64,000 bases of DNA from Ignavibacteriota bacterium (GCA_963701295.1 OY969585.1:2176001-2240000); one strand, 5' to 3'. Positions 5,073-32,085 are shown, counted from the first letter of the stretch. Notes: generated by a model not told the origin, from the sequence alone. Numbers and translations are program-made.

Positions 5073-7286
5073 TCACCATACACCTTCCACGCTCAAGTAA
5101 TAAGTCCGTACCGGTGCCAGATTACCGATCAACTCCACGTAATAGTAGTTGGTCAGATTCTTCACCGTCAATCCGATGGTGATCGGCAGGCCCGTGTTGA
5201 TAAGATTATATGTTACGCCGACATCCACAACTTTACAGGCAACACGCTGGTCTCCATCAATAATAGGGGCAAGACGAACAAGGTTTTCATCAATCGCTTC
5301 CACTCTGCTCACAAAGCGAAAATTCACTTCTGTTCGCCACTGACGGTAGTTTGCGGCCAGCGACGCATAGAATAAATGCCGCGAGCGGAATTTGAGTACC
5401 GTGTTCTGGTTGAGATCGACAGGATCTGTGTAGGTGTAGCTGAAGTCCGTAGCCAGAAATCGGTCGAACCAGTCTGTTTTGATTCCCAATTCCATGCCCC
5501 GAATTCTCGCTCGCGTTATGTTGCTGAAAAGTATCTCCAACTGATTCGGATTGACACCTGCTTCAATAAGATCGTAGTAATCACTTTGAAAGAGTGCCAG
5601 GTCGAGAAAGACTCGGTCACTTAACCATTGAGAACCGCCCATCTCAAATGAAACACTGCGCTCCGGTCTTAAGCTGTCGTTTGGAACGATTTTGATCTGG
5701 CTGACTCCCGTAGAAACAGATGTAAAAAGCTCACTGATGGATGGATAACGAAATCCTTCGCCGTAGGATGCCCGAAGAGTTGTTATCGGGCCCGGGGTGA
5801 AAACCAATCCTATTTTTGGATTGAACTGAGACGGGGAAGAGGCGGCTGGAGATGCGAAGATCTCTTTCCATATTCTTTCCCAATTGTACCTTATTCCCGC
5901 TGTCAATTTGAGTGATTGAAATGGCGTAAACTCATCCTGGATGTAGAAAGCAGCTCCGACGCCGGGATGGGATCCGAAAATATCTGAAATGACACGGTCA
6001 TAATTCGCAACGAGGCCGAACGTAAGAAATTGGGCGGACGAAGTTGTATATGTCCCCTGCGCTTCCAATTGAGTGAAGTGTGCTGCCGAAGTGTTATTGA
6101 CGCGCCCGGAACTATCGTCTTGCCAGAAATTGCCGAAGTAGATTGCTTTCAACGAGTAAAAAAATTGATCGGATAAAATATTTTTATAGGCGAGACTCAC
6201 ATTACCTCGTGCTGAATTCACTTCGCCGTTCAATTGTGCGTCTGCAGGGCGGGTCGGCTCATTCAGACTTTGCCACCAGAAGAAATTGCCGTGCTTACGC
6301 CACTGGAGGTTGGTCATGAGTGTTAAGTTCTGAGATTGCGAAAAATTATAATTGAGTTTCGAGTAAATGCCCCAGCGATGGTACACGTCGTTCACACGAT
6401 AGCTATCGTCTACTGACCGGGAGGCACTTATGAGGTATCCGAAAGAACCGACACGGTTTGAGTAACTGAAGAATCCTCCAGTGTTAAAACGCGGGTTGGA
6501 AGACCAATCCCATCCGGAGTAGATTGGTTTATCGTAGATGCCGGAGAAAAAGCGAAACCGGATCTCGGGTGTTTCGCCGATTTCTTTTGTAATGACATTG
6601 ATGACACCGCCAAGCGCACTCGACCCATACAGCGCGGAACCGGCACCTTTTACAACTTCGATTCGATCGATTTGAAACATTGGAAATGTTTCCCAATTTA
6701 TTTCACCGGTGTCGCCTGTGATGTACGGAAGCCCGTCAATGAGAACAAGTACACGGCTTCCGACGCCTCTGCTGTAACCGGTTGAACCGCGGATATTCAC
6801 TTGATCCGACATCATATTGACACCCGGGACATAGCGAAGCGCATCGTCGAGCGTCACGGAGAGACGATCGGCAATCATTTTGGATGTCACGGTCGAGACA
6901 CTTACAGGAACATCCCGCAAGCTTTGTTCTCGCCGGCTCGCTGTGACAATGACTTGTTCTGTCTGAATGGGAGCTTGTACAAGCGATACATCAAGATGCA
7001 GTACTGTATCGGGTTGAATCGAAATTTGATGGATCGTCTGTGTTGTATACCCGATAAGCGAAAAAGAAATGTCGAACGTTCCGGCTGGAACTCTCCTCAG
7101 CAGATATTTTCCGTGGGCATCTGTCGTTGTACCGCGAACGGTTTCGCGCAGAAGAACATTGACACCGGCAAGCAGCTCTTGTGTTTTCGCATCTGATACG
7201 ATTCCCATAATGGAACCGGCGTTTGGCTGAGCATTCGAAACGTGAAGGAGGAAGACAAGAGCAATATAGAGAAGAGAGTTTCTCAA
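5073..7286 (-). CDS. TonB-dependent receptor with N-terminal carboxypeptidase-regulatory-like domain
   Basis: VIVTASRREQ, IDRIEVVKGAGSALYGSSALGGVINVIT plug motif, C-terminal aromatic residue. Confidence 0.93.
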   Translation of the reverse strand: MRNSLLYIALVFLLHVSNAQPNAGSIMGIVSDAKTQELLAGVNVLLRETVRGTTTDAHGKYLLRRVPAGTFDISFSLIGYTTQTIHQISIQPDTVLHLDVSLVQAPIQTEQVIVTASRREQSLRDVPVSVSTVTSKMIADRLSVTLDDALRYVPGVNMMSDQVNIRGSTGYSRGVGSRVLVLIDGLPYITGDTGEINWETFPMFQIDRIEVVKGAGSALYGSSALGGVINVITKEIGETPEIRFRFFSGIYDKPIYSGWDWSSNPRFNTGGFFSYSNRVGSFGYLISASRSVDDSYRVNDVYHRWGIYSKLNYNFSQSQNLTLMTNLQWRKHGNFFWWQSLNEPTRPADAQLNGEVNSARGNVSLAYKNILSDQFFYSLKAIYFGNFWQDDSSGRVNNTSAAHFTQLEAQGTYTTSSAQFLTFGLVANYDRVISDIFGSHPGVGAAFYIQDEFTPFQSLKLTAGIRYNWERIWKEIFASPAASSPSQFNPKIGLVFTPGPITTLRASYGEGFRYPSISELFTSVSTGVSQIKIVPNDSLRPERSVSFEMGGSQWLSDRVFLDLALFQSDYYDLIEAGVNPNQLEILFSNITRARIRGMELGIKTDWFDRFLATDFSYTYTDPVDLNQNTVLKFRSRHLFYASLAANYRQWRTEVNFRFVSRVEAIDENLVRLAPIIDGDQRVACKVVDVGVTYNLINTGLPITIGLTVKNLTNYYYVELIGNLAPVRTYYLSVEGVW

Positions 7287-21456: not shown

Positions 21457-21930
21457 ATGGAAATATCAAAACATATTGCTTTGGTTGCACATGATAACTG
21501 TAAAAAAGATTTGGTCGAATGGGTAGAATGGAACTGGAAATTGCTCTTGAACCATAAGTTGATCTGTACAGGAACGACCGGCCGCCTTGTTGAAGAAACA
21601 ATATCCAAAAAACTAGAAAAAGGCGATACACTCAAGCATCATATTTTGAAACTCAAATCCGGACCGTTCGGAGGTGATCAACAGCTAGGTGCAATGATTG
21701 CTGAAGAAAAAATCGACTTGTTGATTTTCTTTTGGGACCCTATGCAGCCGCATCCCCACGATGTCGATGTGAAAGCGCTGCTCCGGATTTCTGTTCTTTA
21801 TAATATTCCTACATCGTGTAATAGGGCAACGGCAGATTATATTATTTCGTCACCCTTAATGAAGGAACGATATATTCCAAAAGTAACGGAGTACACTCAA
21901 TACACAGAAAGGGCTATTCCGTTATCGTAG
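21457..21930 (+). CDS. mgsA: Methylglyoxal synthase
   Basis: IALVAHD, TGTTG, SGPFGGDQQ, PHDVDVKALLR. Confidence 0.95.
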   Translation: MEISKHIALVAHDNCKKDLVEWVEWNWKLLLNHKLICTGTTGRLVEETISKKLEKGDTLKHHILKLKSGPFGGDQQLGAMIAEEKIDLLIFFWDPMQPHPHDVDVKALLRISVLYNIPTSCNRATADYIISSPLMKERYIPKVTEYTQYTERAIPLS

Positions 21931-21995: not shown

Positions 21996-22024
21996 TTGAA
22001 TTGAGAGAGAGTTTTTTGTAATTT
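21996..22024 (+). promoter_or_regulatory. Probable native tRNA-Arg promoter
   Basis: TTGAAT-17-TAATTT; the same -10 and spacing occur upstream of tRNA-Ala (55769-55797). Confidence 0.6.
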
Positions 22025-22037
22025 TAGGTGCAACATT

Positions 22038-22102
22038 GGCCCCGTAGCTCAGTGGATAGAGCAACAGCCTTCTAAGCTGTGGGTCGCGTGTTCGAGTCAC
22101 GC
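22038..22102 (+). pseudogene. 3'-truncated tRNA-Arg(UCU) copy (left att site)
   Basis: Identical to the intact tRNA through the T-arm, then AAAACACT replaces the acceptor 3' strand CGGGGTCA. Confidence 0.9.
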
Positions 22103-22182
22103 AAAACACTACGATTTTCTGCATGTCCTTCCTTACTGGGTACTAATTTTGGGACTCCCTGCCTCAGAAAGCGAGGCTTCCG

Positions 22183-23253
22183 ATGTTCCTCTACAAGCAT
22201 TCCAACGGTGTTTATTATCTGTATTTTAAGAACGAGCAAGGCAAAAGACAAAAAGTCTCTACTCGTTGCACATACAAAGCCGATGCAATGAATTTCTTGC
22301 AGTCCTTCAAAAGGGACGAATACGAGAGAAGGCAGAAAGCAAAACATAAGCTTCTATCTGAATTCCTCATTGCTTTTCTTTCCTATGCTGAAGGAAGCTT
22401 CTCTGAGGGCACTGTAGCAATCTACAAGGCAACACTCAAGAACTTCATCGAATACATCGGAGACTTTCCGCTTGCCAATTACACGCCTCAGCATTTTGAT
22501 ATTTACAAAACTGAGAGACAAAAGCCTGTCAAAGTGGTTACGGTTAAAGATGGTCACACAACAGAGAAGGAGAAGATTGTCAAGCCGGTAACTGTCAACA
22601 TTGAACTCCGAGCGCTGAGGGCTTTCTTCAATACAGCCGTCCGGTGGAAGCTCCTCGAAAGTAATCCATTCAAAATCCAACTTGTGAAGGTACCGGAGAA
22701 TAAACCGACTTTCATCACAAAGCAAGAGTTTCAAAAACTGCTCAATGTGATAGAGGAACATTGGTTGAAGGAAGTGATAATTTTTGCCGTCAGTACCGGA
22801 TTGCGGAGAGGTGAATTAGTGAACCTGAAATGGGAAAGTGTTGACCTCAGCCGGAAGTTGCTCTACGTTGAAAGCACTCCGACGTTTCGCACGAAAGCCG
22901 GAAGAATGAGAATCATTCCATTGAATGATACTGCTCTCTACCTTCTGCAATCAAGGCAAGGTAAAGATACGTCGAGCTATGTTTTCACATTGAGTGGAAA
23001 GCTGTTGTTTGCCGATTGGATTACTCACTTATTCAAGCGATATGTGCGAAAGGCAAACCTCAGCAATCAGAGCATACATTTCCATTCACTCCGGCACTCT
23101 TTTGCTTCTTGGCTTGCTCAGGACGGCACTTCTGTTTATGTGATTAAAGACCTACTTGGTCACTCGGACGTGAAAACAACGCAGATATACAGCCATTTAC
23201 AGCCGGAGAGCTTGCATGCTGAGGTGAATAAGATTTCGGTATCTATGAATTGA
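22183..23253 (+). CDS. Tyrosine integrase
   Basis: TGLRRGEL, HSLRHSFASW, LLGHSD..TTQIY catalytic motifs. Confidence 0.95.
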   Translation: MFLYKHSNGVYYLYFKNEQGKRQKVSTRCTYKADAMNFLQSFKRDEYERRQKAKHKLLSEFLIAFLSYAEGSFSEGTVAIYKATLKNFIEYIGDFPLANYTPQHFDIYKTERQKPVKVVTVKDGHTTEKEKIVKPVTVNIELRALRAFFNTAVRWKLLESNPFKIQLVKVPENKPTFITKQEFQKLLNVIEEHWLKEVIIFAVSTGLRRGELVNLKWESVDLSRKLLYVESTPTFRTKAGRMRIIPLNDTALYLLQSRQGKDTSSYVFTLSGKLLFADWITHLFKRYVRKANLSNQSIHFHSLRHSFASWLAQDGTSVYVIKDLLGHSDVKTTQIYSHLQPESLHAEVNKISVSMN

Positions 23254-23350
23254 GGAATTGGTTATACTTAAATTTGAATCTTTTGATATAATTAAGTAGA
23301 ATCAATTGAGGCAAAACAATCCATGCGACCGTTATCACAAAGGATGAAAT

Positions 23351-23947
23351 ATGAAAAAGAAAAATAGAATAATTCTAATAGTCATCGCATCAATGATTGT
23401 TTTTCTGTTTTTTATTAAGACAAACCAGATTGCAGGCTTTATCCTTTTTGATAAGACTTATGCTCAAATAGCTGGTTCGAATATGCTGCAAGTCTATGGA
23501 GAAACACCGATTGCCAATAGACCAGTTTATGTTATCTCAATTAATCCTTTTACAATGTTTGATATAGATATTCTTAATGATTACTTTCTTCAGCGAATGG
23601 TTGTTCACAATGATGAATTGAGCATTGAACTTAAATTGATTAAATCAATTGATAAAAATTCACTTCACCGTCTTGATAGTATTGATGCTATTGCCTCAAA
23701 ATCCTTAGATGCTCTAATGAATCATTGGTGCACATATTCAACTCGGACGGATGTAAATGGACATTTCTCCGTCTCTGTTCCTGCAGGAAAATATCTTATT
23801 CTTGCTGTAGTGCCGAGTAAGAGGTTAAGTACTAAAACAGAACCAATTGGTGAGCTTGTATATGATTCAAAATGGGTATTTGCTTTCCAAAATTCATCAA
23901 AAGAGTTCTTGATTCATCCATTAGAATTGATTCATACAATAAGATAA
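23351..23947 (+). CDS. Membrane-anchored/exported cargo protein, unknown function
   Basis: N-terminal hydrophobic anchor; TDVNGHFSVSVPAGKY beta-sandwich-like motif. Confidence 0.65.
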   Translation: MKKKNRIILIVIASMIVFLFFIKTNQIAGFILFDKTYAQIAGSNMLQVYGETPIANRPVYVISINPFTMFDIDILNDYFLQRMVVHNDELSIELKLIKSIDKNSLHRLDSIDAIASKSLDALMNHWCTYSTRTDVNGHFSVSVPAGKYLILAVVPSKRLSTKTEPIGELVYDSKWVFAFQNSSKEFLIHPLELIHTIR

Positions 23948-24021
23948 AAATAGGTTGTCATCTTACAAGTTCATCTTGGCTGTTATCCATTAAGCATGCA
24001 TGAATTATGTGTGGAGTTTAG

Positions 24022-24846
24022 ATGAAATCAATACGTCCTTTTATCTTCCTTTTAGCATCCCTCATGCTAATATCATTTGTTACTGCTCAAGATTTTCGCA
24101 GTGTTAAATGGGGAATGACTCGACAACAAGTTATGGAAAAAGAAACAGAATGCAAACCCATTGAATCATTACTCGAAAATGCAATTGCATTTAGATGCGA
24201 AACTGGCAACAGTTCTCTTTATTCGTCCTTAGAGATTTATTATTTTTTTGATAATTACGCTGTGGATAGTATAACAACTACCTTTGGTTTACAAAGTATC
24301 CTTCTTAACTACAATGATGCCACACAGAAACTTTTTGGAGGAATGAAACAATTACGCTCAGCGGAGTGTGGCAATCCAATAAAACGAAACGACAGTTATT
24401 ATTGGAGAAGCAAAGATAAAAAGTATGTTGTTGAATTATCCTATGACCGGAACAAACATTGTATATCTGAAACCATAGCCGAACCGAACTGGGTTTTTGT
24501 GAAAGATATTGATTTCTCAAAAAAACCAAAAGAACAATCTGATTCTCCAGAATGGCAGACCACTCAAACGTTCAGTGGCAAATCAATGGAAACAACAGAC
24601 GACTTTTCTATCAAAAGCAAAAAATGGAGAATAAATTGGACTGTGGTTCCTGTAAACGATGAAATGGCATCGCTCTTCTTTGGCGCCCTACTAGTCAATA
24701 ATGAAGGGCACTCAGAAGTGATTGGAAACGTGATGAATGAAGACAATGGAACTTCGGTTTTTAGAGAACAGGGAACTTATTATTTAAAAATTACAGCATC
24801 AAATGCAAATTGGGAAATCGAAATTCAAGAATATTTAAAAAAATAA
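24022..24846 (+). CDS. Secreted cargo protein, unknown function
   Basis: Signal peptide then DFRSVKWGMTRQQV; beta-rich C-terminal domain. Confidence 0.7.
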   Translation: MKSIRPFIFLLASLMLISFVTAQDFRSVKWGMTRQQVMEKETECKPIESLLENAIAFRCETGNSSLYSSLEIYYFFDNYAVDSITTTFGLQSILLNYNDATQKLFGGMKQLRSAECGNPIKRNDSYYWRSKDKKYVVELSYDRNKHCISETIAEPNWVFVKDIDFSKKPKEQSDSPEWQTTQTFSGKSMETTDDFSIKSKKWRINWTVVPVNDEMASLFFGALLVNNEGHSEVIGNVMNEDNGTSVFREQGTYYLKITASNANWEIEIQEYLKK

Positions 24847-24892
24847 ATTAGATAGCATAGCTAAGCAGGCGCTAAAGATGATAACCTGAGTT

Positions 24893-25114
24893 TTAAATTT
24901 TTTCCGTTAGGAATTCGCCAACACAAAAAAGGTATTTGCTTCTCTTTAGTGAGAAGGGAGGTTTTATAAAATGGAAACTTTCTTTGTTGTAATCTTCTTC
25001 ATTGGACTGATTGCGGCGGCGATTAGAAGTTATGGTGCGAAAGATGGCACAGACGGCTATAGTGGTAATGACGACGAATTTCATGATGAATTTAATGATT
25101 TTGAATAACTTCAT
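24893..25114 (-). CDS. Possible small membrane peptide
   Basis: ATG start, one hydrophobic segment, fills an intergenic gap; no recognised family. Confidence 0.3.
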   Translation of the reverse strand: MKLFKIIKFIMKFVVITTIAVCAIFRTITSNRRRNQSNEEDYNKESFHFIKPPFSLKRSKYLFCVGEFLTEKI

Positions 25115-25262
25115 TTGTTGATTTATTAGTTTGGTTATGACATATTTTTGAGAAGCCGTCCCTTCTCAAACGGACATTCACCGTAAGGTGAAAAATATAA
25201 AATCCATTGTTGGCAGTGGACGGACTGCTGACAGTGGATTTTATGTTGTATGAGGTGATGGT

Positions 25263-26267
25263 GTGTATTCGCGATTAGACAAAGCGGATTTAGAGCATGC
25301 AAGAGAACTTGAACGAACCAGAATGGAACAATTACGGAAACTCGAACGAGAAAGAGTGCACGAGATAGGGAAACTTAAACGTAAAAGGAAAGTTGGAGGA
25401 CTACAGGAAGGTGAACAACAAACATTAGAGTTGTTGAAGTATGATAAAATTTCACTACAACCGTCTAAACTCTGGTATCCTTTTGGAACTATACATACAC
25501 TGAAAGATTTTTTAAGGAGATGCACAAAAAACGAACGACAAATATTCAAAATGATATTGCAAGACATCAATGAGTTAACACCGAAGAGATTGTCACAGGA
25601 GAAGGAACTAACTCTTTTGAACCTTTTACATGGCATAATAAATCTTTTGGAATGTGGAAATGTTAAAGGCATAACGGAGACGGAAGAAAGATACAATCAG
25701 AAACTAAAACTCTACCAAAAAGATATACGTGATAACGAATTATTTCCGCTTGCTCGTAACATTTATAAAATTAGAAATGATAATGCATGTAAACTTGAAT
25801 CATTCATTATCCGGCGGGAAGGTGCTGCACGCGCTTATGCAAAGAAATATTTTAAAAAACATAGAAAAGAACTTGAACAAGAATACAATGATAAATTCAA
25901 CAAGGATATAGCAAAAAGCAAATACAAAAAACGCTGGAAGGAATACATAATCCATGAAGTATTTGGAAAGATAATGAGTAATGGAATCAAAATACCAAGA
26001 AATGAATTGAGACTTCCCAAAGATGGAAGACTTTACAGACATAACAATCGACTTTATATAAGGAAAAATACACCTGAAGTGGAAAAGATTTCATTGGAAA
26101 AAGAACTTTCAAATATTAAGAGAATAAAGCTTTTCGATGCTATGGTAGAGGCTAATAAACAACATAGGATATTTCCCAAAAAAGAATTTGAACAAGACAA
26201 AAAAAAGATTTTCGACAGACTTAAACATTTCCACGGGAAGCACAAAAGCCGTATGAAATTAATTTAG
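25263..26267 (+). CDS. Basic helical hypothetical protein
   Basis: 334-aa ORF, GAGGTG RBS, followed by a hairpin at 26293-26326. Confidence 0.65.
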   Translation: MYSRLDKADLEHARELERTRMEQLRKLERERVHEIGKLKRKRKVGGLQEGEQQTLELLKYDKISLQPSKLWYPFGTIHTLKDFLRRCTKNERQIFKMILQDINELTPKRLSQEKELTLLNLLHGIINLLECGNVKGITETEERYNQKLKLYQKDIRDNELFPLARNIYKIRNDNACKLESFIIRREGAARAYAKKYFKKHRKELEQEYNDKFNKDIAKSKYKKRWKEYIIHEVFGKIMSNGIKIPRNELRLPKDGRLYRHNNRLYIRKNTPEVEKISLEKELSNIKRIKLFDAMVEANKQHRIFPKKEFEQDKKKIFDRLKHFHGKHKSRMKLI

Positions 26268-26461
26268 CACCTTCATAAATTTTCACTTCACAAAAGGCTT
26301 GCTTTCTTAAATGAGAGTGAGCCTTTCTCGTTTTTATAAAACAAACTGCAAAAAGTGAAGTCTCTTCACCCAATTAGCTCTGATTATTATGGTATCTACA
26401 AATACTTCTTCATAAAATTCTATGTGAATAAAAGCTTAGACATAAATCGAATTGAATCAAG

Positions 26462-26502
26462 AAGCAGATTGGAGTTCCCTAAGCTCTCCAATCTGCTTTT
26501 TT
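26462..26502 (+). terminator. Intrinsic terminator upstream of the replication genes
   Basis: AAGCAGATTGGAG / CTCCAATCTGCTT 13-bp stem followed by a T-run. Confidence 0.75.
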
Positions 26503-26583
26503 ATTTGTTGCACTCGCAACAACAAAAAACGGGCTGTCAAGTTCGAGGCTTAGACAACCCGTCAAAATCCAGAAAGGATTTTT

Positions 26584-27003
26584 ATGCTACAATCAAATAT
26601 ACAAAGAATTATTCTCAGTCCAACAAAATTAAAAAGTGTTTGGACTGTTGAACTGCACCTTCCATTTGAAACGCGCTATGTTGGCAAGTTGGACAAAGCC
26701 GGAGAAGGAACATTTATCTGCAAGAGGAAAGAAAAACATCTTCACTGGAAGACTAATTCGCTTGGTGTCAATCTTGAACTGCTTCAACGTTTCGATTTCA
26801 GGTGGATTTGTATTGAGTATTGCGGTCGTAAGCTCTTTACTACAAAACTATACATTCTCCATCATGGTAAGGTGTTCACATTCGACAAATCCGGTTTTGA
26901 AACGCAAGCGTTTCTTCCGTTGGAGGCTTGGGGACAGGATAAAGCATTAGAATTTGAAAGGCATTTAAACAGTCAAGGTAACTTATTCAATGAGGCTGCC
27001 TAA
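26584..27003 (+). CDS. Hypothetical protein, first gene of the replication operon
   Basis: AAGGA RBS; TAATG overlap with the helicase start. Confidence 0.7.
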   Translation: MLQSNIQRIILSPTKLKSVWTVELHLPFETRYVGKLDKAGEGTFICKRKEKHLHWKTNSLGVNLELLQRFDFRWICIEYCGRKLFTTKLYILHHGKVFTFDKSGFETQAFLPLEAWGQDKALEFERHLNSQGNLFNEAA

Positions 27004-28364
27004 TGATTACTACTATTGATGCTGAAAAGTTATTGGTAGCCGCTTGCTTGCAAGGCAGGAAATCAACCCTAATGATTGCAGATACATTGGGAGTCTGTGA
27101 AGATGACTTTAGCGATAAGCATCTCAGAATGATATTCGATGTATGCCAAGCTTTAGTCCTTCAACGAAAAGATGTTGATGCCCTTGCAGTTCAATCCTAT
27201 CTCCGGAATAGTGTTGATGAATTGTATTTCTCTGGTAAAGATAAACAGCAGGAACTTGAAGCGGTCGAATCCCTCTGCAAAGATGTCGCAACCGATTATC
27301 AATTCCTTAAACAACTCGCTTCTCCCTATACAGCTTGTCAATTTGTGAAGAAGGAAGCGCAACGCCGGAAAGTGATGGAGAAGATTTTCACACTATCGGA
27401 TAAACTGCAAAACGGAAGTGATGTTGAGGCAATCCTCAATATCGGTATATCGGACTTGCTTGCGATTTCGCATTCGATACAGAACTTGAATCAAAAGAAT
27501 TATCTCTCACTTGACGATGCAATCGTTGAAGCTGAAAGAGAAATCCAAGACGAACTCTCTGGAAAAGCGAACTGGCTATCTACCGGAATACCGGACGTTG
27601 ACAAATTGATACACGGACTCCACAATGAATGTTTATACATCATAGGAGCTGAGGCAAAGGTAGGAAAATCTTTGTTGAGCAATCAAATAGCACTTCATAA
27701 TGCAATCAAAGGCATTCCGGTCGGTATTGTTTCGATGGAAATGAGCGGACGCGAGATTGTGAAACGATATGCCGGAATATCTCACTGGGCAAGTCCACAA
27801 GATAAATTGCAATCTCTGGAAACATTCAAAGCACAAGCAAAAGGAAAGCCATTGTATTTCCGGCAAGGTGGAACTTCAACAAAATCCCTGTTCTCTATCC
27901 TTCAACAATTGGTCAATGATAGAAAATGCAAGCTTCTGATTTTGGATTATCTCCAGCTTATTCAGCTATCCGAAAAGAACCGGAACGCCGTTGATGAACT
28001 CAATTCTGTCTTAGCTGAATTGAAAAGCTTTGCAATTGAAAATCAGATACCGATTATTCTTGTGAGTGCTGTATTGACAAAGCAAGTCGCTGGAAAGAAT
28101 ATCAAGAAGCCCTCACGAGCCGATATAGTGGGAACTGGCAGAGCAATCAACGACTGTGATTGTATGTTGATGCTCTGGACACCGGAAGAGGAGAACCGAA
28201 AGTATATCGAAATCTTTGTAGAGCATGGACGCAATGGAGAAAATGGAAAAGCCGGTCTCTACCTCAACGATTCACTACAACTCGTACCAACAACTTTAAG
28301 AGAAGCTGAGGTAATACCATTGAAGGAATATAAGCCGAAATCTTCTTACGGCGGAAAGTGGTAG
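27003..28364 (+). CDS. DnaB-like replicative helicase (phage-type)
   Basis: IDAEKLL N-terminus, STGIPDVD, GAEAKVGKS, SMEMS, LILDYLQL. Confidence 0.9.
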   Translation: MITTIDAEKLLVAACLQGRKSTLMIADTLGVCEDDFSDKHLRMIFDVCQALVLQRKDVDALAVQSYLRNSVDELYFSGKDKQQELEAVESLCKDVATDYQFLKQLASPYTACQFVKKEAQRRKVMEKIFTLSDKLQNGSDVEAILNIGISDLLAISHSIQNLNQKNYLSLDDAIVEAEREIQDELSGKANWLSTGIPDVDKLIHGLHNECLYIIGAEAKVGKSLLSNQIALHNAIKGIPVGIVSMEMSGREIVKRYAGISHWASPQDKLQSLETFKAQAKGKPLYFRQGGTSTKSLFSILQQLVNDRKCKLLILDYLQLIQLSEKNRNAVDELNSVLAELKSFAIENQIPIILVSAVLTKQVAGKNIKKPSRADIVGTGRAINDCDCMLMLWTPEEENRKYIEIFVEHGRNGENGKAGLYLNDSLQLVPTTLREAEVIPLKEYKPKSSYGGKW

Positions 28365-28371
28365 GCAGGCA

Positions 28372-28716
28372 ATGGCTTCTCCACAAGTTGAAAATGGCTA
28401 TACAAGAGTGTCTAATGAGCTATTAGAAGCGATTGTGAGAACGAAAATGAACGGGACGCAGTTCGCTATAGTCTTAGCTGTGATTAGAGCAACCTATGGC
28501 TTTCATAAGAAAAGTAGAGAATTAGGTCTTGCATTCTTTGCAGTAGCAACCGGACATAATAAGCGAAAAATCGGAATCGAACTTAATAAGCTAATCAATA
28601 GAAAGATTCTGATAATAGAAAAAGGGCATTGTCTTGGTCATAGTCGTGCATTGAGACTTAATAAAGATTATGAGAGCTGGATAAATTTTGATAGGTATGT
28701 ACCTAATGGGACATAG
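28372..28716 (+). CDS. Lambda O-like replication initiator, N-terminal domain only
   Basis: MASPQVENGYTRVSNELLEA..VIRATYGFHKK..LNKDYESW. Confidence 0.85.
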   Translation: MASPQVENGYTRVSNELLEAIVRTKMNGTQFAIVLAVIRATYGFHKKSRELGLAFFAVATGHNKRKIGIELNKLINRKILIIEKGHCLGHSRALRLNKDYESWINFDRYVPNGT

Positions 28717-28800
28717 GGTATGTACCAAAACGTAAAAAAGGTATGTACCAAATGGGACACTAAATAAAGAAATAAAGAAAGCTTTAAAGAGATATTTAAT
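28694..28800 (+). repeat. Iterons plus A-rich tract (putative origin)
   Basis: GGTATGTACC at 28694, 28717 and 28740 (23-bp period), then an A-rich stretch. Confidence 0.75.
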
Positions 28801-28980
28801 ATGAAGAATACATTACAAGTGATTGAAGAAGAAATTCTATTCATAGGTCAACAACTTAATGAAGAAGTCTTTGAGCAGTACACTTCAGGCGAAATCACAC
28901 TTCAGCAACTGGATGAAGCTTATCGAATCCTTTCAAAATGGTCACTTCAGAGCGAAAATGTGTTGAAGTTGCTGGAATAA
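28801..28980 (+). CDS. 59-aa acidic hypothetical protein
   Basis: Manual ORF MKNTLQVIEEE..KLLE*, below the track's length cut-off. Confidence 0.5.
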   Translation: MKNTLQVIEEEILFIGQQLNEEVFEQYTSGEITLQQLDEAYRILSKWSLQSENVLKLLE

Positions 28981-29027
28981 AAGTAATTAAAACCTTTACT
29001 ATTTAGGATAAACAGAAAGAGAGAATA

Positions 29028-29552
29028 ATGGGTGGTTTTGGTAGTGGTCGTTCCGGCTGGCGTCCGGTCGTTGAAGACGGATTGAAGCTTGATTCGTACC
29101 GATTGCAGAGACAAGGCTTATTGAGTATTCACGGCTGTGAACTTTCAATTGGTTCGCTTGAATGGACATATACTTCCTCTGGAGAGCATGTTGCTTCCAT
29201 CGGCTATTCCGTAAATTATGAGAACCAGACGATGATACTCACCTACACGAAGACAATTGATGGAGAAAAATATCCGGTCAACGAAACTATCTGGCTGATA
29301 AGGCAGAAAACTAATTTCGGAGGTTCCCGCTTTCTTTTTAAATGTCCAAGCTGTTACGCAAGGGTAGCAAAACTTTATCTACCTAATGGTGCGCTCCATT
29401 TTCGCTGTCGTGGGTGTTATAATCTTACATATCAAAGCAGTAATGATAGCCATGAGTTCGACTTTCTTTTTCGACAAATATCATCTGAAACGGGTATGTC
29501 TTTTGGAAATGCTAAAAAAATAATGAAGAACATGTGGTACGTACTAAAGTAG
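29028..29552 (+). CDS. Zn-finger hypothetical protein (MGGFGSGR N-terminus)
   Basis: FGGSRFLFKCPSC..FRCRGCYNLTYQS. Confidence 0.75.
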   Translation: MGGFGSGRSGWRPVVEDGLKLDSYRLQRQGLLSIHGCELSIGSLEWTYTSSGEHVASIGYSVNYENQTMILTYTKTIDGEKYPVNETIWLIRQKTNFGGSRFLFKCPSCYARVAKLYLPNGALHFRCRGCYNLTYQSSNDSHEFDFLFRQISSETGMSFGNAKKIMKNMWYVLK

Positions 29553-29634
29553 TGTTAAATAGTATTGAATGGCTATCGAAAATGATATTATGAAACGGGT
29601 TGCCTTCTCTGTAATTGTTTTGTAAATTGAAATA

Positions 29635-29742
29635 GAACTCAAAGAAATCCGCTTTCGGAAAATCAAGAAAGAATTTACTCGAAAGAGTAGAACGCCAAGA
29701 GTTCAGAGACCGGAAGCCTCGTTTCGCTTGGCGTTTCTTATT
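29635..29742 (+). ncRNA. Candidate element-encoded sRNA complementary to the integrase RBS
   Basis: Promoter TTGCCT-17-TAAATT (29600-29628); GAAA hairpin; 9-bp stem enclosing CGGAAGCCTCG, the complement of 22172-22182. Confidence 0.5.
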
Positions 29743-29845
29743 CGTGGCAGGTGGGGACTAAATTGGTAACCTTGTGAGTGAGATAGGAGCAAACATCTTA
29801 ATCATTCACAGAAGATAATTGTAGATTTTCGATTGTTTTTCCATT

Positions 29846-29918
29846 GGCCCCGTAGCTCAGTGGATAGAGCAACAGCCTTCTAAGCTGTGGGTCGCGTGTT
29901 CGAGTCACGCCGGGGTCA
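29846..29918 (+). tRNA. tRNA-Arg (anticodon TCT), intact; CCA not encoded
   Basis: Cloverleaf: GGCCCCG/CGGGGTC acceptor, ACAGC-CTTCTAA-GCTGT anticodon arm, TTCGAGT T-loop. Confidence 0.95.
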
Positions 29919-29982
29919 CGTACTTAATTCATTTTTCGATCCTCCATATAACTTTCAATGGTTTCTAATATTTCTCAATAAA

Positions 29983-30018
29983 AAATCCCATCTCTTGCAA
30001 AACAAAAGATGGGATATA
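29983..30018. terminator. Hairpin between tRNA-Arg and the convergent peptidase gene
   Basis: ATCCCATCT / AGATGGGAT stem preceded by an A-run. Confidence 0.55.
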
Positions 30019-30038: not shown

Positions 30039-32085
30039 CTACTTCAGATTCCAGATCATCGCGCGTTTTTCCGGAGCTATATACATCGCGCCGCCCTTAC
30101 CGCATCCGAATGCATCATAAAATGCTTGAAGGTTCGGCAACGAACCATTGACCCGGAGTTCAGCAGGTGAGTGGACATCTGTTTTTACCTGCATCCGGAG
30201 TCGTTCCGGGCGTACATTTCGCCGCCACACCTGTGCAAACGAAAGGAAGAATCTTTGTTCAGGAGTGAATCCATCAATGGGTGCAACATTCTTTCCTTTC
30301 AGTGCGTTCTCCATGGCTGTAAAGGAAATGGCAAGTCCGCCAAGGTCGCCTATATTTTCGCCGAGAGTCATTGCGCCATTGATGTGAAGCGAATCAATCG
30401 GGACAAAGCCATCGAACTGATGAGCGAGCGTTCCCGTTCGCTCGTCGAATTTCTTACGTGTCTCCGGTGTCCACCACATCTTCAAATTTCCTTCTGCATC
30501 GAACTTGCTGCCCTGGTCATCGAATCCATGCGAGATTTCGTGGCCTATAACAACACCGATACCGCCATAGTTAACAGCATCATCTGCTTTGAAATCAAAG
30601 AAGGGAGGCTGCAAGATACCTGCGGGGAATACGATTTCATTCATAGATGGATTGTAATATGCATTCACGATCTGTGGTGACATTCCCCATTCGGTTCTGT
30701 CTACCGGTTTACCAATCTTGTTAATTTCACGCTGCACAGCAAACTGTGCCGCATGCCGAACGTTTTCAAGATAGGAAGTTCGATCGATCGTGAGCTTAGT
30801 ATAGTCCCGCCACTTGTCGGGATATCCAATCTTGACCACGATCGCGTCAAGTTTTTTGAGTGCGGCCTGTTTGGTAGTGTCATCCATCCAAGTAATGGTA
30901 TGAATATGCTCACGCAGTGCAAGTTTAATATTGTTGACCAATTCCAGTGCACGAGCCTTTGCTTCAGGAGGAAATGCTTTCGCAACATACACCTCGCCAA
31001 CAGCTTCACCCAAGAGACCATCAATCACACCCCGGATGCGTTTCCAACGCGGCTGCATTTCTTTCGCACCTGTCATGATAGTACCGTGGAACCGAAAATT
31101 CTCTGCGACGAATGCGGAACTTAAAGAGTTTGCGGAGTTACTCACGACCCTCCAGCGGAGATAGTTTTTCCATGTCTCAACAGGAACGGTTTCCAACATG
31201 ACATTGACTTCTTTAAAAAATTCAGGTTGTTCAACATCCACGTTTCCTGGATTTGACCATCCCAGATCGATAAAATATCGTTTCCAGTCGAATGCGGGAG
31301 CGAGTGCTGCAAGTTGCTCCTGAGTCATTTTATTATAGTTCTTGTCCGGATCGCGAAGATCGACAAGCCGACGCGATGTCTTCGCAAGCTGCGTTTCAAA
31401 AGCCATCACTGACTGCGCTGAAGCAGCCGCCTTTGTGGTATCATCACCTATCAATTGAAACATCGCCATTACATGTTTTACATATTCTTCACGAATTCGT
31501 TTAGAGCGTGCTTCTTCTGAGAAGTAGTAATCACGTTCAGGCAGCCCAAGACCTCCCTGATCAATCTCACCGATGACTTCAATGCTGTTCTTCGGATCCT
31601 GTTCAGAGCCAAAGTTGAAAAGGGGATTTAAATGTATGGAATGAAGACGACCGATTTCTTGCTGTACATCCTGAATATTCTTAATCGCTCCAATACGTTC
31701 CAGTTCTCCGGCGATAGGTTTCATTCCCTTTGCTTCGATAGCGGTAGAGTCCATTCCAGTAGCATAAAAGTCGCCGATCTTTCGTTCGTTGCTTCCTGCG
31801 GACGCCGATTTGTCCTTTGCTGCGTCTTCAAGAATCTTCATGAAGCACATCGCTGTTATGGTCTGCAAGGATATTAAAGCTTCCCCATTGATCGAAGGCG
31901 GCAGGAATTGGATTGGACTTGAGCCAAGTACCGTTTGCATAGTGGAAGAAATCATCACAAGGTTTTATCGAAAGATCCATATTAGAAGGATCAATTGGTT
32001 TTGTTTGATTCGGTATATTCTGTCCAGTTGCTACATTGACGAGTAATAGTGCAACAGTGACTTTTAGTGTTGCGAAGAGCTTCAT
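30039..32085 (-). CDS. M13 (PepO/neprilysin) metallopeptidase, one frameshift near 31840
   Basis: Signal peptide and PCDDFFHYANGTW in one frame; VNAYY, HEISH and GENIGD in the other. Confidence 0.9.

Follow-up and report, generated by a model that had tools for sequence, protein, structure and literature searches.

The locus considered here lies in a window of 64,000 nt (the whole stretch of DNA that was analysed) from an Ignavibacteriota bacterium (GCA_963701295.1 OY969585.1:2176001-2240000), and consists of a small integrated element bordered by a methylglyoxal synthase-like gene, mgsA (21457..21930, + strand; Pfam MGS, orthologues in four relatives), and by an M13 peptidase gene, identified by profile match on the - strand (30039..31958) and accompanied by a terminator-like hairpin at 29985-30015. 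All the genes of the element are on the + strand. The first encodes a tyrosine integrase of 356 aa (22183..23253), which matches PF00589 (E 3e-35) and phrog_1 and whose catalytic motif residues are conserved in the alignment; the Xer and integron models of NCBIfam all remained below cut-off against it. It is followed by two low-GC cargo ORFs of 198 and 274 aa with hydrophobic N-termini and no family (23351..24846), by ORFs of 334 and 139 aa (25263..27003), which have no match in Pfam, PHROG, NCBIfam or Atlas and the shorter of which recurs in related elements, by a DnaB-like helicase (27003..28364; Pfam DnaB_C, E 2e-32, with phage_DnaB below cut-off), by a 114-aa phage replication protein O N-terminal domain (28372..28716; PF04492, TIGR01610), after which short iteron-like repeats can be seen in the sequence to about 28760, and by a 174-aa conserved hypothetical protein (29028..29552), which the comparison of elements recovers in related elements and whose Atlas look-alikes are unnamed phage and bacterial clusters. 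Since neither conjugation nor virion genes were detected in the element with Pfam, PHROGs and NCBIfam, it is classified neither as an ICE nor as a prophage; the presence of an integrase together with DnaB-like and O-like genes in so small an element corresponds to the replication module of PICIs and phage satellites, and the same three collections revealed no AlpA or divergent regulator pair and no helper-hijacking genes, several ORFs carrying no assignment.

The element is delimited by an exact direct repeat of 69 bp (22034-22102 and 29842-29910, spacing 7808 nt), made up of 4 nt of leader and nt 1-65 of tRNA-Arg; no second repeat of similar length or identity occurs in the 18-34 kb part of the window. 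The intact 74-nt tRNA-Arg(TCT) is found at the right end (29846-29919, + strand); the left copy, on the same strand, carries tRNA nt 1-65 at 22038-22102 and lacks nt 66-74, that is, the 3' strand of the acceptor. The sequence confirms in full the initial annotation on the content of the repeat and the position of the intact gene, and its question whether this is the only Arg(UCU) tRNA of the genome can be answered in the affirmative, the gene being the sole Arg(TCT) one among 46 tRNAs (3.64-Mb single-contig genome). Gene and same-strand fragment bracket 7808 nt, within the 2-200 kb range applied to tRNA-gene islands; the fragment represents the tRNA's 5' end and is situated upstream of the complete gene, so that the locus belongs to the 5'-fragment, or reverse-orientation, islands and not to the standard ones, in which the gene remains under its own promoter and a 3' fragment is found downstream. 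Islands with a 5' tDNA fragment at tRNA genes were reportedly described by Zhao and Williams in 2002.

The native arrangement can be read from four empty-site relatives (G001, G004, G009 and G010), where mgsA and a leader of the left type (81-91% identical) stand directly before the intact tRNA; mgsA orthologues 93-96% identical lie directly upstream of an intact tRNA-Arg(TCT) in four relatives. Because the empty sites carry the left leader, this leader is the native one, and the right-copy leader finds no match among the tRNA leaders of 22 relatives, in agreement with the 5'-replacement geometry originally put forward. The order mgsA-tRNA-M13 then expected for an empty site is recovered in two halves, mgsA-tRNA in the four relatives and tRNA-terminator-M13 in G012 and G014, but all three are contiguous in none of the relatives examined; the support for the two flanks comes from different genomes. 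It could be objected that faulty assembly has produced the repeat, or that it is the right-hand leader which is native; indeed, in one low-depth contig set (run share 0.18), which may derive from the source sample and has matches of at least 99% to parts of the element and of the two flanks, no contig bridges either repeat copy or an excision or circle joint. Against this objection, which is scarcely credible, stand the native left leader of the four relatives, the recurrence of the left junction in L172 and of the right junction in L173 (separate metagenome assemblies), and the presence of both junction types in eight or more other complete elements. It is practically certain that a 7.8-kb tyrosine-integrase element lies upstream of the sole tRNA-Arg(UCU), with the native leader and a 5' fragment left before int.

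The 5'-fragment layout is the norm for the integrase clade concerned, which is spread over Ignavibacteria and their relatives and switches among many tRNAs. All eight integrases at least 70% identical for which upstream DNA is available (a ninth has none) are located behind tRNA 5' fragments, their targets being Arg(TCT, ACG, CCG) or Pro(TGG); in a quick tree the window integrase falls into a clade of 19 rows (98% SH-aLRT), 17 of them with a 5' fragment, and the integrases of L145 and L385 fall into a different one. The opinion of the initial annotation that 5' replacement is uncommon holds for islands overall, but overstates the case, the layout being both published and, in this clade, the rule (8/8). 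A decayed sister element in the same genome carries a hybrid fragment, whose nt 1-29 resemble Arg(ACG) (27/29) and whose nt 35-52 resemble Arg(TCT) (15/18 vs 10), which implies a crossover before the anticodon; crossovers just 5' of the anticodon would allow the clade to move between Arg isoacceptors and Pro(TGG). The right ends of these elements can outlive the rest: a genome-wide search retrieved five without a cognate 5' fragment, and of the Arg tRNA genes in this genome, five in all, four are located behind the promoter-RNA module described below. These five orphan right ends bear out the suggestion that the right end is hard to lose, but clean excision restores the native promoter, so that only its piecemeal loss would be penalised.

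The native tRNA promoter-like site, TTGAAT-17-TAATTT (21996..22024, + strand), was found where it had been reported, 42 nt before the left repeat copy, and is directed towards the fragment and int. A scan with the E. coli consensus does not pick it; it fits the pattern TTG-N3/17/TA-N3-T, present 41-60 nt upstream of 15 of the 46 tRNA genes, and it is kept before the intact tRNA in the four empty-site relatives and before the same fragment in L172. It is presumably active, and transcription from it would then read through into int. Within 110 nt of the right copy there is no native-type promoter; the element promoter-like site TTGCCT-17-TAAATT (29600..29628, + strand) faces the tRNA in the integrated state, and 39 of 40 related loci have the corresponding pattern at the RNA's 5' end, against a background of 1.07 per kb in the genome. 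The dependence of the tRNA on an element promoter, already suggested in the initial annotation, is thereby reinforced, and the 29600 site and the RNA behind it very probably supply tRNA transcription. The -10 box that had been proposed at 29822-29827, TAGATT, did not survive the comparison: it has no -35 box, and the same place reads TAGAAA, TCGAAA, CCGAAA, TAGAAT, CCTGAA and others in 11 related right ends. A second promoter between the RNA and the tRNA was also discarded, 6 of 35 spacers containing one against about 4.6 expected in 4294 nt.

TAGATT has the look of one half of an att-site inverted repeat. Putative att-arm sites comprise, on the left (22116..22158), an imperfect inverted-repeat half at 22116-22123 and tandem ~10-bp repeats at about 22137-22158 and, on the right (29752..29827), tandem ~10-bp repeats at 29752-29771 and the other inverted-repeat half at about 29820-29827; these motifs occupy similar positions in related elements, and their function is suggested by the attP architecture of tyrosine integrases. 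When the best 11-bp inverted repeat round the att core was sought blindly, this reading received weak support, the centres being scattered between 14 and 36 over 16 elements and lying near nt 31 in L091, L095 and L370.

Downstream of the element promoter-like site, covariation identifies a conserved structured RNA of ~115 nt (29634..29750, + strand), which, like its match to the integrase start, the initial annotation had missed. It is composed of a 5' segment (29644-29658), a GNRA hairpin (29674-29691) and a long-loop hairpin with a U-rich tail (29692-29734), whose loop (29711-29724) is predicted to pair either with the 5' segment, in a pseudoknot, or with the start of int. In the comparison, 92.5% of 414 cells are paired and 12 of 28 pairs show two-sided changes; none of 500 shuffles scores as high, and slid controls reach 30-49%. 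The single-sequence fold of the window RNA gives no signal (z = -0.97), and the evidence for structure is therefore comparative. No match to 29634-29750 was found in Rfam 15 at E up to 10, an Rfam scan of nine related loci at gathering score returned only tRNAs, the promoter-RNA stretch has no match in the phage collection, and the RNA model gave nothing convincing on six viral loci (one match, at E 0.3). Judged by its covariation, this is an uncatalogued pseudoknotted RNA behind a conserved att-arm promoter; promoter and fold are conserved across many elements at different tRNAs, and an intact same-strand tRNA follows the RNA in 35 of 40 loci. That the promoter-RNA module belongs to the attP arm is indicated by L398, where the same RNA occurs in the standard geometry, facing the tRNA 3' end. 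The hairpin with its U-tract, 95 nt ahead of an essential tRNA, resembles a terminator. The RNA was also considered as a bridge-RNA-like guide for target choice, a role which was rejected, the same loop being found at Arg(ACG) and Pro(TGG) elements and different loops in two Pro(TGG) elements.

With its own promoter-like site and its conserved structure, the RNA shares two sequence features with trans-acting antisense sRNAs. The translation-start region of int (22161..22182, + strand) is predicted to form a hairpin hiding the SD (-7.9 kcal/mol; 3.6% of 1208 SD-led genomic starts fold as well) and includes a 14-nt target of the loop (22169-22182); the 14-bp duplex between the two has a predicted energy of -26.3 kcal/mol, ranking first among 12,194 candidate start regions of the genome (next -22.5). 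The duplex is strong in 12 of 18 complete elements (-19 to -28 kcal/mol, at most 0.8% of background windows being as good), L388, whose integrase start is missing, having been left out; three of the twelve (L370, L385 and L390) were found after the pairing idea arose. In the other six (L109, L146, L389, L398, L402 and L403) the pairing is weak or absent (-5 to -13 kcal/mol), and in a second RNA type it is not evident, so that what is universal is the pseudoknot and not the antisense pairing. Across six close elements the helix is paired in every one of its 84 cells; G-U accounts for 15 of these and A-C for none, and two columns have changed on both sides. The bias becomes modest once distinct events are counted, with 8 columns of G-U as opposed to 3 of A-C when a flanking position and L370 are included. 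The elements are kin, and the match in L145 and L385 may stem from module exchange. That the loop damps integrase translation by pairing with the ribosome-binding region, as an antisense control, is suggested by these predicted pairings and may be rated slightly below an even chance.

The account which we consider reasonably probable as a whole is that of a reverse-geometry element whose right-arm promoter and RNA drive the tRNA and damp int translation. Because int is now behind a strong host tRNA promoter, it would be held down at translation, the candidate brakes being its own SD-hiding hairpin and the RNA loop, with the availability of the latter gated by the pseudoknot. The 29600 promoter would be the promoter of the circle junction, reading, after excision, across attP into int, as Pcirc of ICEclc does; since it points outward when integrated, the family could afford to replace the 5' end of its target tRNA. 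Enough polymerases would pass the U-tailed hairpin for the tRNA to be made, and the leader would be released afterwards by termination or by RNase P. A broader and more tentative version, which we would not favour as it stands, is that of a tRNA-hopping family in Ignavibacteria and their relatives in which an essential pre-tRNA leader is also a pseudoknot-gated antisense RNA against the element's own integrase, tRNA synthesis keeping the element integrated and the modules staying behind as permanent tRNA leaders.

Much of the same evidence can be arranged differently. The RNA might be a cis-acting attenuator, the 5' leader of the circle promoter, in which pseudoknot and terminator compete and which sets the transcription reaching int in the circle and the tRNA in the integrated state, the match to the int start being a by-product or operating only in cis in the circle. 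In agreement with this, the U-tailed hairpin is conserved in the type I RNAs, the six elements that have lost the int-start pairing keep the pseudoknot, the second pseudoknotted RNA type occupies the same place in other family members, and, when the modelled circle transcript is folded with nested pairs only, the int start is covered by the loop in cis, which would be an obstacle to integration unless the pseudoknot prevails. In the closest elements, however, the anti-SD part of the loop is free in the pseudoknot and still complementary to the SD of int, and in L091 and L100 one change in the loop breaks a pseudoknot pair and keeps the int pair; an attenuator is on balance rather unlikely. Still less probable, though deserving mention, is a match residing in the DNA, as an inverted repeat of the att arms (protein sites or an old duplication), with the RNA only stabilising or processing the tRNA precursor. 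The sense duplex is the stronger in 10 of 12 elements, but in 5 of the 12 the opposite-strand duplex comes close to it in strength, and in the window itself the opposite-strand one is as strong (-27.6 kcal/mol); moreover, other inverted motifs flank the att core in both arms, and orphan modules remain before tRNAs once int is gone. A DNA repeat is argued against by the helix mismatches of the six close elements, which are G-U on the sense strand (15 vs 0), and by the L398 module, which, facing a tRNA 3' end, cannot be a tRNA leader.

The preferred reading, that of right-arm promoter and RNA serving both tRNA and int, suggests by what means the tRNA stays expressed and the integrase quiet in such elements after a promoter swap. 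If the antisense role were true, the RNA would be a switch sensing the integration state through DNA rearrangement, and an essential host gene would be coupled to the stability of the element. Element-derived leaders are now fixed in front of host tRNAs, and many elements of this lineage would escape island finders that look for 3' fragments only.

PICI-like phage satellites are small, with a terminal integrase, phage-type replication genes and no capsid or conjugation genes; the window element shares its small size, end integrase and O-like and DnaB-like genes with them, no capsid or conjugation genes having been found, and differs in that no AlpA or divergent pair, terminase or capsid-redirecting gene was detected with Pfam, PHROGs and NCBIfam. 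The IS10 RNA-OUT and IS200 art200 are short stem-loop RNAs of mobile elements which pair over the translation start of the recombinase and are encoded opposite their target. The window RNA, on the other hand, is 7.5 kb from its target, in the other att arm, with an imperfect match including G-U pairs, and is predicted to have a pseudoknot gate and to double as a tRNA leader. In the mainly open-access literature searched, no report was found of an RNA of the att arm that acts on the start of an integrase gene. In ICEclc, Pcirc is an att-end promoter, pointing outward in the integrated state and lying upstream of the integrase gene once the circle has formed (PMC5812530), and the parts of that article considered mention no structured RNA or antisense pairing for it; ICEclc uses the 3' end of a tRNA-Gly, so that Pcirc drives no tRNA, and it is conjugative, whereas the window element has no conjugation genes. 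In the pelagiphages HTVC021P/022P/201P/121P (bioRxiv 10.1101/410191) the core is located at a host tRNA's 5' end and a phage-derived 5' part completes the gene; these are full podophages, unlike the window element, which has no virion genes, and the main text describing them does not contain the word promoter. Reverse layout alone is ordinary in kind, 159 of 3919 islands (about 4%) having a 5' fragment in the Islander study (PMC4383910); 5' recombination is given as considerably less frequent in PMC6563490, and the passages considered from either source speak of neither a promoter nor an RNA module. With the 5'-fragment islands, as far as those passages describe them, the window element shares the tyrosine integrase, the 5' fragment upstream, the intact gene downstream and the restoration of the 5' part by the element; it differs from them in that the layout is here the rule of a clade of Ignavibacteria and their relatives, at many tRNAs, and in that the promoter module has been traced.

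The island lies between exact 69-nt direct repeats (22034-22102 and 29842-29910 of the window), each comprising 4 nt of leader and nucleotides 1-65 of tRNA-Arg(TCT), whose intact copy occupies 29846-29919; it is the only Arg(TCT) gene among the 46 tRNAs of the genome (one contig, 3.64 Mb), which answers a question raised in the initial annotation. AGA, read solely by the UCU anticodon under standard wobble rules, accounts for 5553 of the 36,521 Arg codons counted across 1455 long ORFs. Besides the tyrosine integrase gene int (22183-23253), the stretch between the repeats carries two cargo ORFs of low GC content, two more ORFs (334 and 139 aa), genes for a DnaB-like helicase and an O-like replication protein, and a conserved 174-aa ORF; no virion, conjugation or regulator genes were recognised among the element ORFs, and the named relatives are MAGs of Ignavibacteriota and other Bacteroidota/Chlorobiota. 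The O-like product, just 114 aa, corresponds to an N-terminal domain, and its gene ends in iteron-like short repeats (28698-28760), possibly a replication origin, or else the gene is possibly a truncated initiator. A strong, terminator-like 24-bp inverted repeat (25194-25247) immediately precedes the 334-aa ORF, near a short opposite-strand ORF (24893-25114).

The native end of the tRNA gene was sought with the right junction as query against 61 genomes, 20 stretches around tRNA-Arg(TCT) being taken for comparison. In four relatives (G001, G004, G009, G010), an intact tRNA is immediately preceded by mgsA and by a leader that includes the TTGAAT-17-TAATTT site and shares 81-91% identity with the left leader of the window, while the right-copy leader matches none of the 22 relatives' leaders compared; the proposal that the element replaces the 5' part of its target is thus borne out. 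The expected empty site, mgsA-tRNA-M13 peptidase, was recovered in halves, mgsA-tRNA in these four genomes and tRNA-terminator-M13 peptidase in G012 and G014; all three of mgsA, tRNA and M13 peptidase are contiguous in none of the genomes examined. No sequence from a read set was found to bridge the repeats, but the native leader lies on the left in the four relatives and both junctions recur in separate contigs: L172, from a metagenome, carries the same promoter, the same fragment of nucleotides 1-65 and an integrase 87% identical, and L173 carries a right end of the same kind with intact tRNA-Arg(TCT). Misassembly is therefore very unlikely, and the element is a real reverse-geometry tRNA island, of an already known kind and common in its lineage.

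Indeed, among 161 classified integrase loci (L091-L251, some duplicated between collections), 45 have a same-strand 5' tRNA fragment upstream of the integrase: 8 of 9 at integrase identities of at least 70% (the ninth lacking upstream DNA), 8 of 14 at 50-70%, 22 of 60 at 40-50% and 7 of 78 below 40%, the only class showing flipped arrangements, in which tRNA part and integrase lie on opposite strands. A quick tree of 92 integrases (open frames above 300 aa) places that of the window within a 19-row clade (98% support), 17 rows of which have the 5' fragment; reverse geometry is a habit of this clade. Whole elements spanning 4.6-7.5 kb, with the fragment first, then int and then the intact tRNA, occur in 8 of 20 stretches; the tRNA genes used are Arg(CCG), Arg(ACG), Pro(TGG), Gln(CTG), Lys(TTT) and Thr(CGT). 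Elsewhere, Islander reports a 5' fragment in 159 of 3919 islands (PMC4383910), the layout is described as considerably less frequent in PMC6563490, where Zhao and Williams 2002 is cited, and pelagiphages also use it (10.1101/410191). Three reverse-geometry elements (L078, L079, L080) lie upstream of two-tRNA operons (Gln-Glu, Lys-Leu), and the two Gln elements among them duplicate 59-69 bp of host leader, including the promoter, at the right end.

Inserts of other kinds were also seen at tRNA-Arg genes. In several genomes of the window's genus, duplicated 5' pieces of 20-34 nt are followed by a hairpin-rich insert of ~110 nt immediately upstream of the tRNA, without integrase (L032:8165-8310, L033:15936-16071, L172:5832-6027, L025 near 9781); these are possibly miniature inserts targeting tRNA loops. 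In two genomes, tRNA-Arg copies have the T-loop split by the same ~30-nt palindromic, REP-like insert (L029:7120-7175, L021 near 6946-6963).

As for transcription of the tRNA, a TTG-N3/16-18/TA-N3-T site lies 41-60 nt upstream of 15 of the 46 tRNA genes; the left repeat copy has one such site, 42 nt upstream, and the right copy none within 110 nt. Upstream of their tRNAs, related right ends can be aligned over some 245 nt. The candidate -10 box TAGATT at 29822 was rejected, being unconserved in 11 related right ends. A covariance model, built from 16 sequences, of the RNA behind the promoter-like site at 29600-29628 found matches in 14 out of 86 genomes from the family and 21 out of 151 from the order. 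Forty matched places were analysed, most places already in the set and two weak matches being left out, and two of the 40 (L394, L397) being training members again. The promoter pattern, nearly always with 17-bp spacing, ends at the RNA 5' end in 39 of the 40, and in 35 an intact same-strand tRNA follows 61-327 nt downstream of the RNA (the others having a partial tRNA match in three, a contig end in one and an opposite-strand tRNA in one). In the interval from RNA to tRNA, 6 of these 35 loci show a further promoter pattern, about the chance rate. Given a right copy without a near promoter, an unconserved TAGATT, a conserved 29600 site and second promoters at chance, transcription of the tRNA most likely starts at the 29600 promoter and reaches the gene by read-through; the initial annotation would thus be right about an element promoter, and its alternative at 29822 falls away.

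The RNA itself (29634-29750) consists of a 5' segment, an A-rich linker, a GNRA hairpin, a hairpin with a ~27-nt loop predicted to pair with the 5' segment as a pseudoknot, and a U-rich tail. In a MAFFT alignment of 16 sequences, with the structure hand-drawn from the same sequences, 92.5% of 414 cells are paired and 12 of 28 pairs (3 of 12 pseudoknot pairs) change on both sides; none of 500 shuffles scored as high, and slid partners gave 30-49% pairing. RNAalifold recovers both hairpins unaided, and among 41 distinct model hits, in an alignment fitted to the model, 12 of 15 pairs show two-sided change. Rfam 15 holds no match. Other family members carry at the same att-arm place a second, different pseudoknotted RNA (12 sequences, alignment A5: L082:6487-6600, L125:18113-18225, L108:16259-16365 and nine more), in which a long 3' hairpin has a loop region that pairs at two places with the 5' segment; 8 of the 12, with the loop located by motif, beat all 200 shuffles, and the two loci tested gave no Rfam match.

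The predicted target of the loop is the int SD site and spacer at 22169-22182, to which loop positions 29711-29724 are complementary; the duplex, at -26.3 kcal/mol, is the top one among 12,194 candidate start regions of the genome. Of 18 complete elements with both ends, 12 pair strongly (-19 to -28 kcal/mol, at most 0.8% of background windows being as good): the window, L091, L092, L095, L100, the Arg(ACG) element of the same genome, L107, L145, L158 and the later-found L370, L385 and L390. The remaining six (L109, L146, L389, L398, L402, L403) show no strong pairing, and in five of them the integrase is less than 40% identical over most of its length. All 84 cells of the 14-bp helix are paired in the six closest elements, 15 of the pairs being G-U; A-C is absent, and two columns show two-sided change; counted as distinct events, with the flanking base and L370, there are 8 G-U versus 3 A-C columns among these kindred elements, a modest bias. 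L145 and L385 have integrases just 42% identical and of a different clade, yet share RNA loop and int start with L107, which suggests exchange of att-arm modules between integrase lineages. The int start of 27 of 28 relatives also folds into an SD-hiding hairpin of -6.2 kcal/mol or better, a stability reached by 8.3% of the genome's 1208 SD-led starts. A scan detected no terminator separating the host promoter from int, which makes read-through into the gene plausible. The loop, if it acts on int at all, may do so in trans or, in the excised circle, in cis; a nested-only fold of the circle transcript predicts that it covers the int start there. What is new at the locus is the promoter-RNA module, together with the effect on int predicted for it; no report of such a module acting on int was found in the mostly open-access literature, nor any in Rfam.

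The idea that the right end is hard to lose holds in part. Strictly speaking, the element is not addictive, because clean excision restores the native arrangement; piecemeal loss, on the other hand, seems to spare the right end. The cognate fragment is present in 7 of 22 loci with at least 15 kb upstream, and the remaining 15 may be orphans or belong to longer elements; right ends seem to outlast elements in G019 and G002 (99-100% complete), where searches of the whole genome gave Arg(CCG) and Thr(CGT) no cognate 5' fragment, and in G008 (86% complete), where the same holds for Arg(TCG). In the window's genome, modules precede four of the five Arg tRNA genes (TCT, ACG, TCG and CCT) as well as Ser(TGA), and Arg(CCG) retains a native-type promoter. 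Further modules, of both RNA types, were noted near C1 positions 2498044, 2503200, 2756844, 2839374 and 3436630 (loci L312-L315), and 5' tRNA fragments, several adjoining integrases, at 2513386, 2839321, 2884881, 3462846, 3626778, 2316508 and 3172371.

On the simplest reading, the module is part of the attP arm, and the family can replace tRNA 5' ends because the module's promoter faces outward; one element, L398, carries the same module in standard geometry, toward the tRNA 3' end. Integration would swap promoters, the element promoter passing to the tRNA and the host promoter to int, translation of which would probably be held down by its own hairpin and the RNA loop; some read-through past the U-tailed hairpin would be needed to reach the tRNA. 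The decayed Arg(ACG) element of the window's genome has a chimeric fragment, ACG-like at nucleotides 1-29 and TCT-like at 35-52, which in this one case suggests a crossover 5' of the anticodon; such a crossover would account for hopping among isoacceptors. Excision would bring promoter and RNA, in the circle, to a place ~350 nt upstream of int, an arrangement like that of ICEclc, whose Pcirc, as described in PMC5812530, is likewise placed upstream of the integrase once the element is circular.
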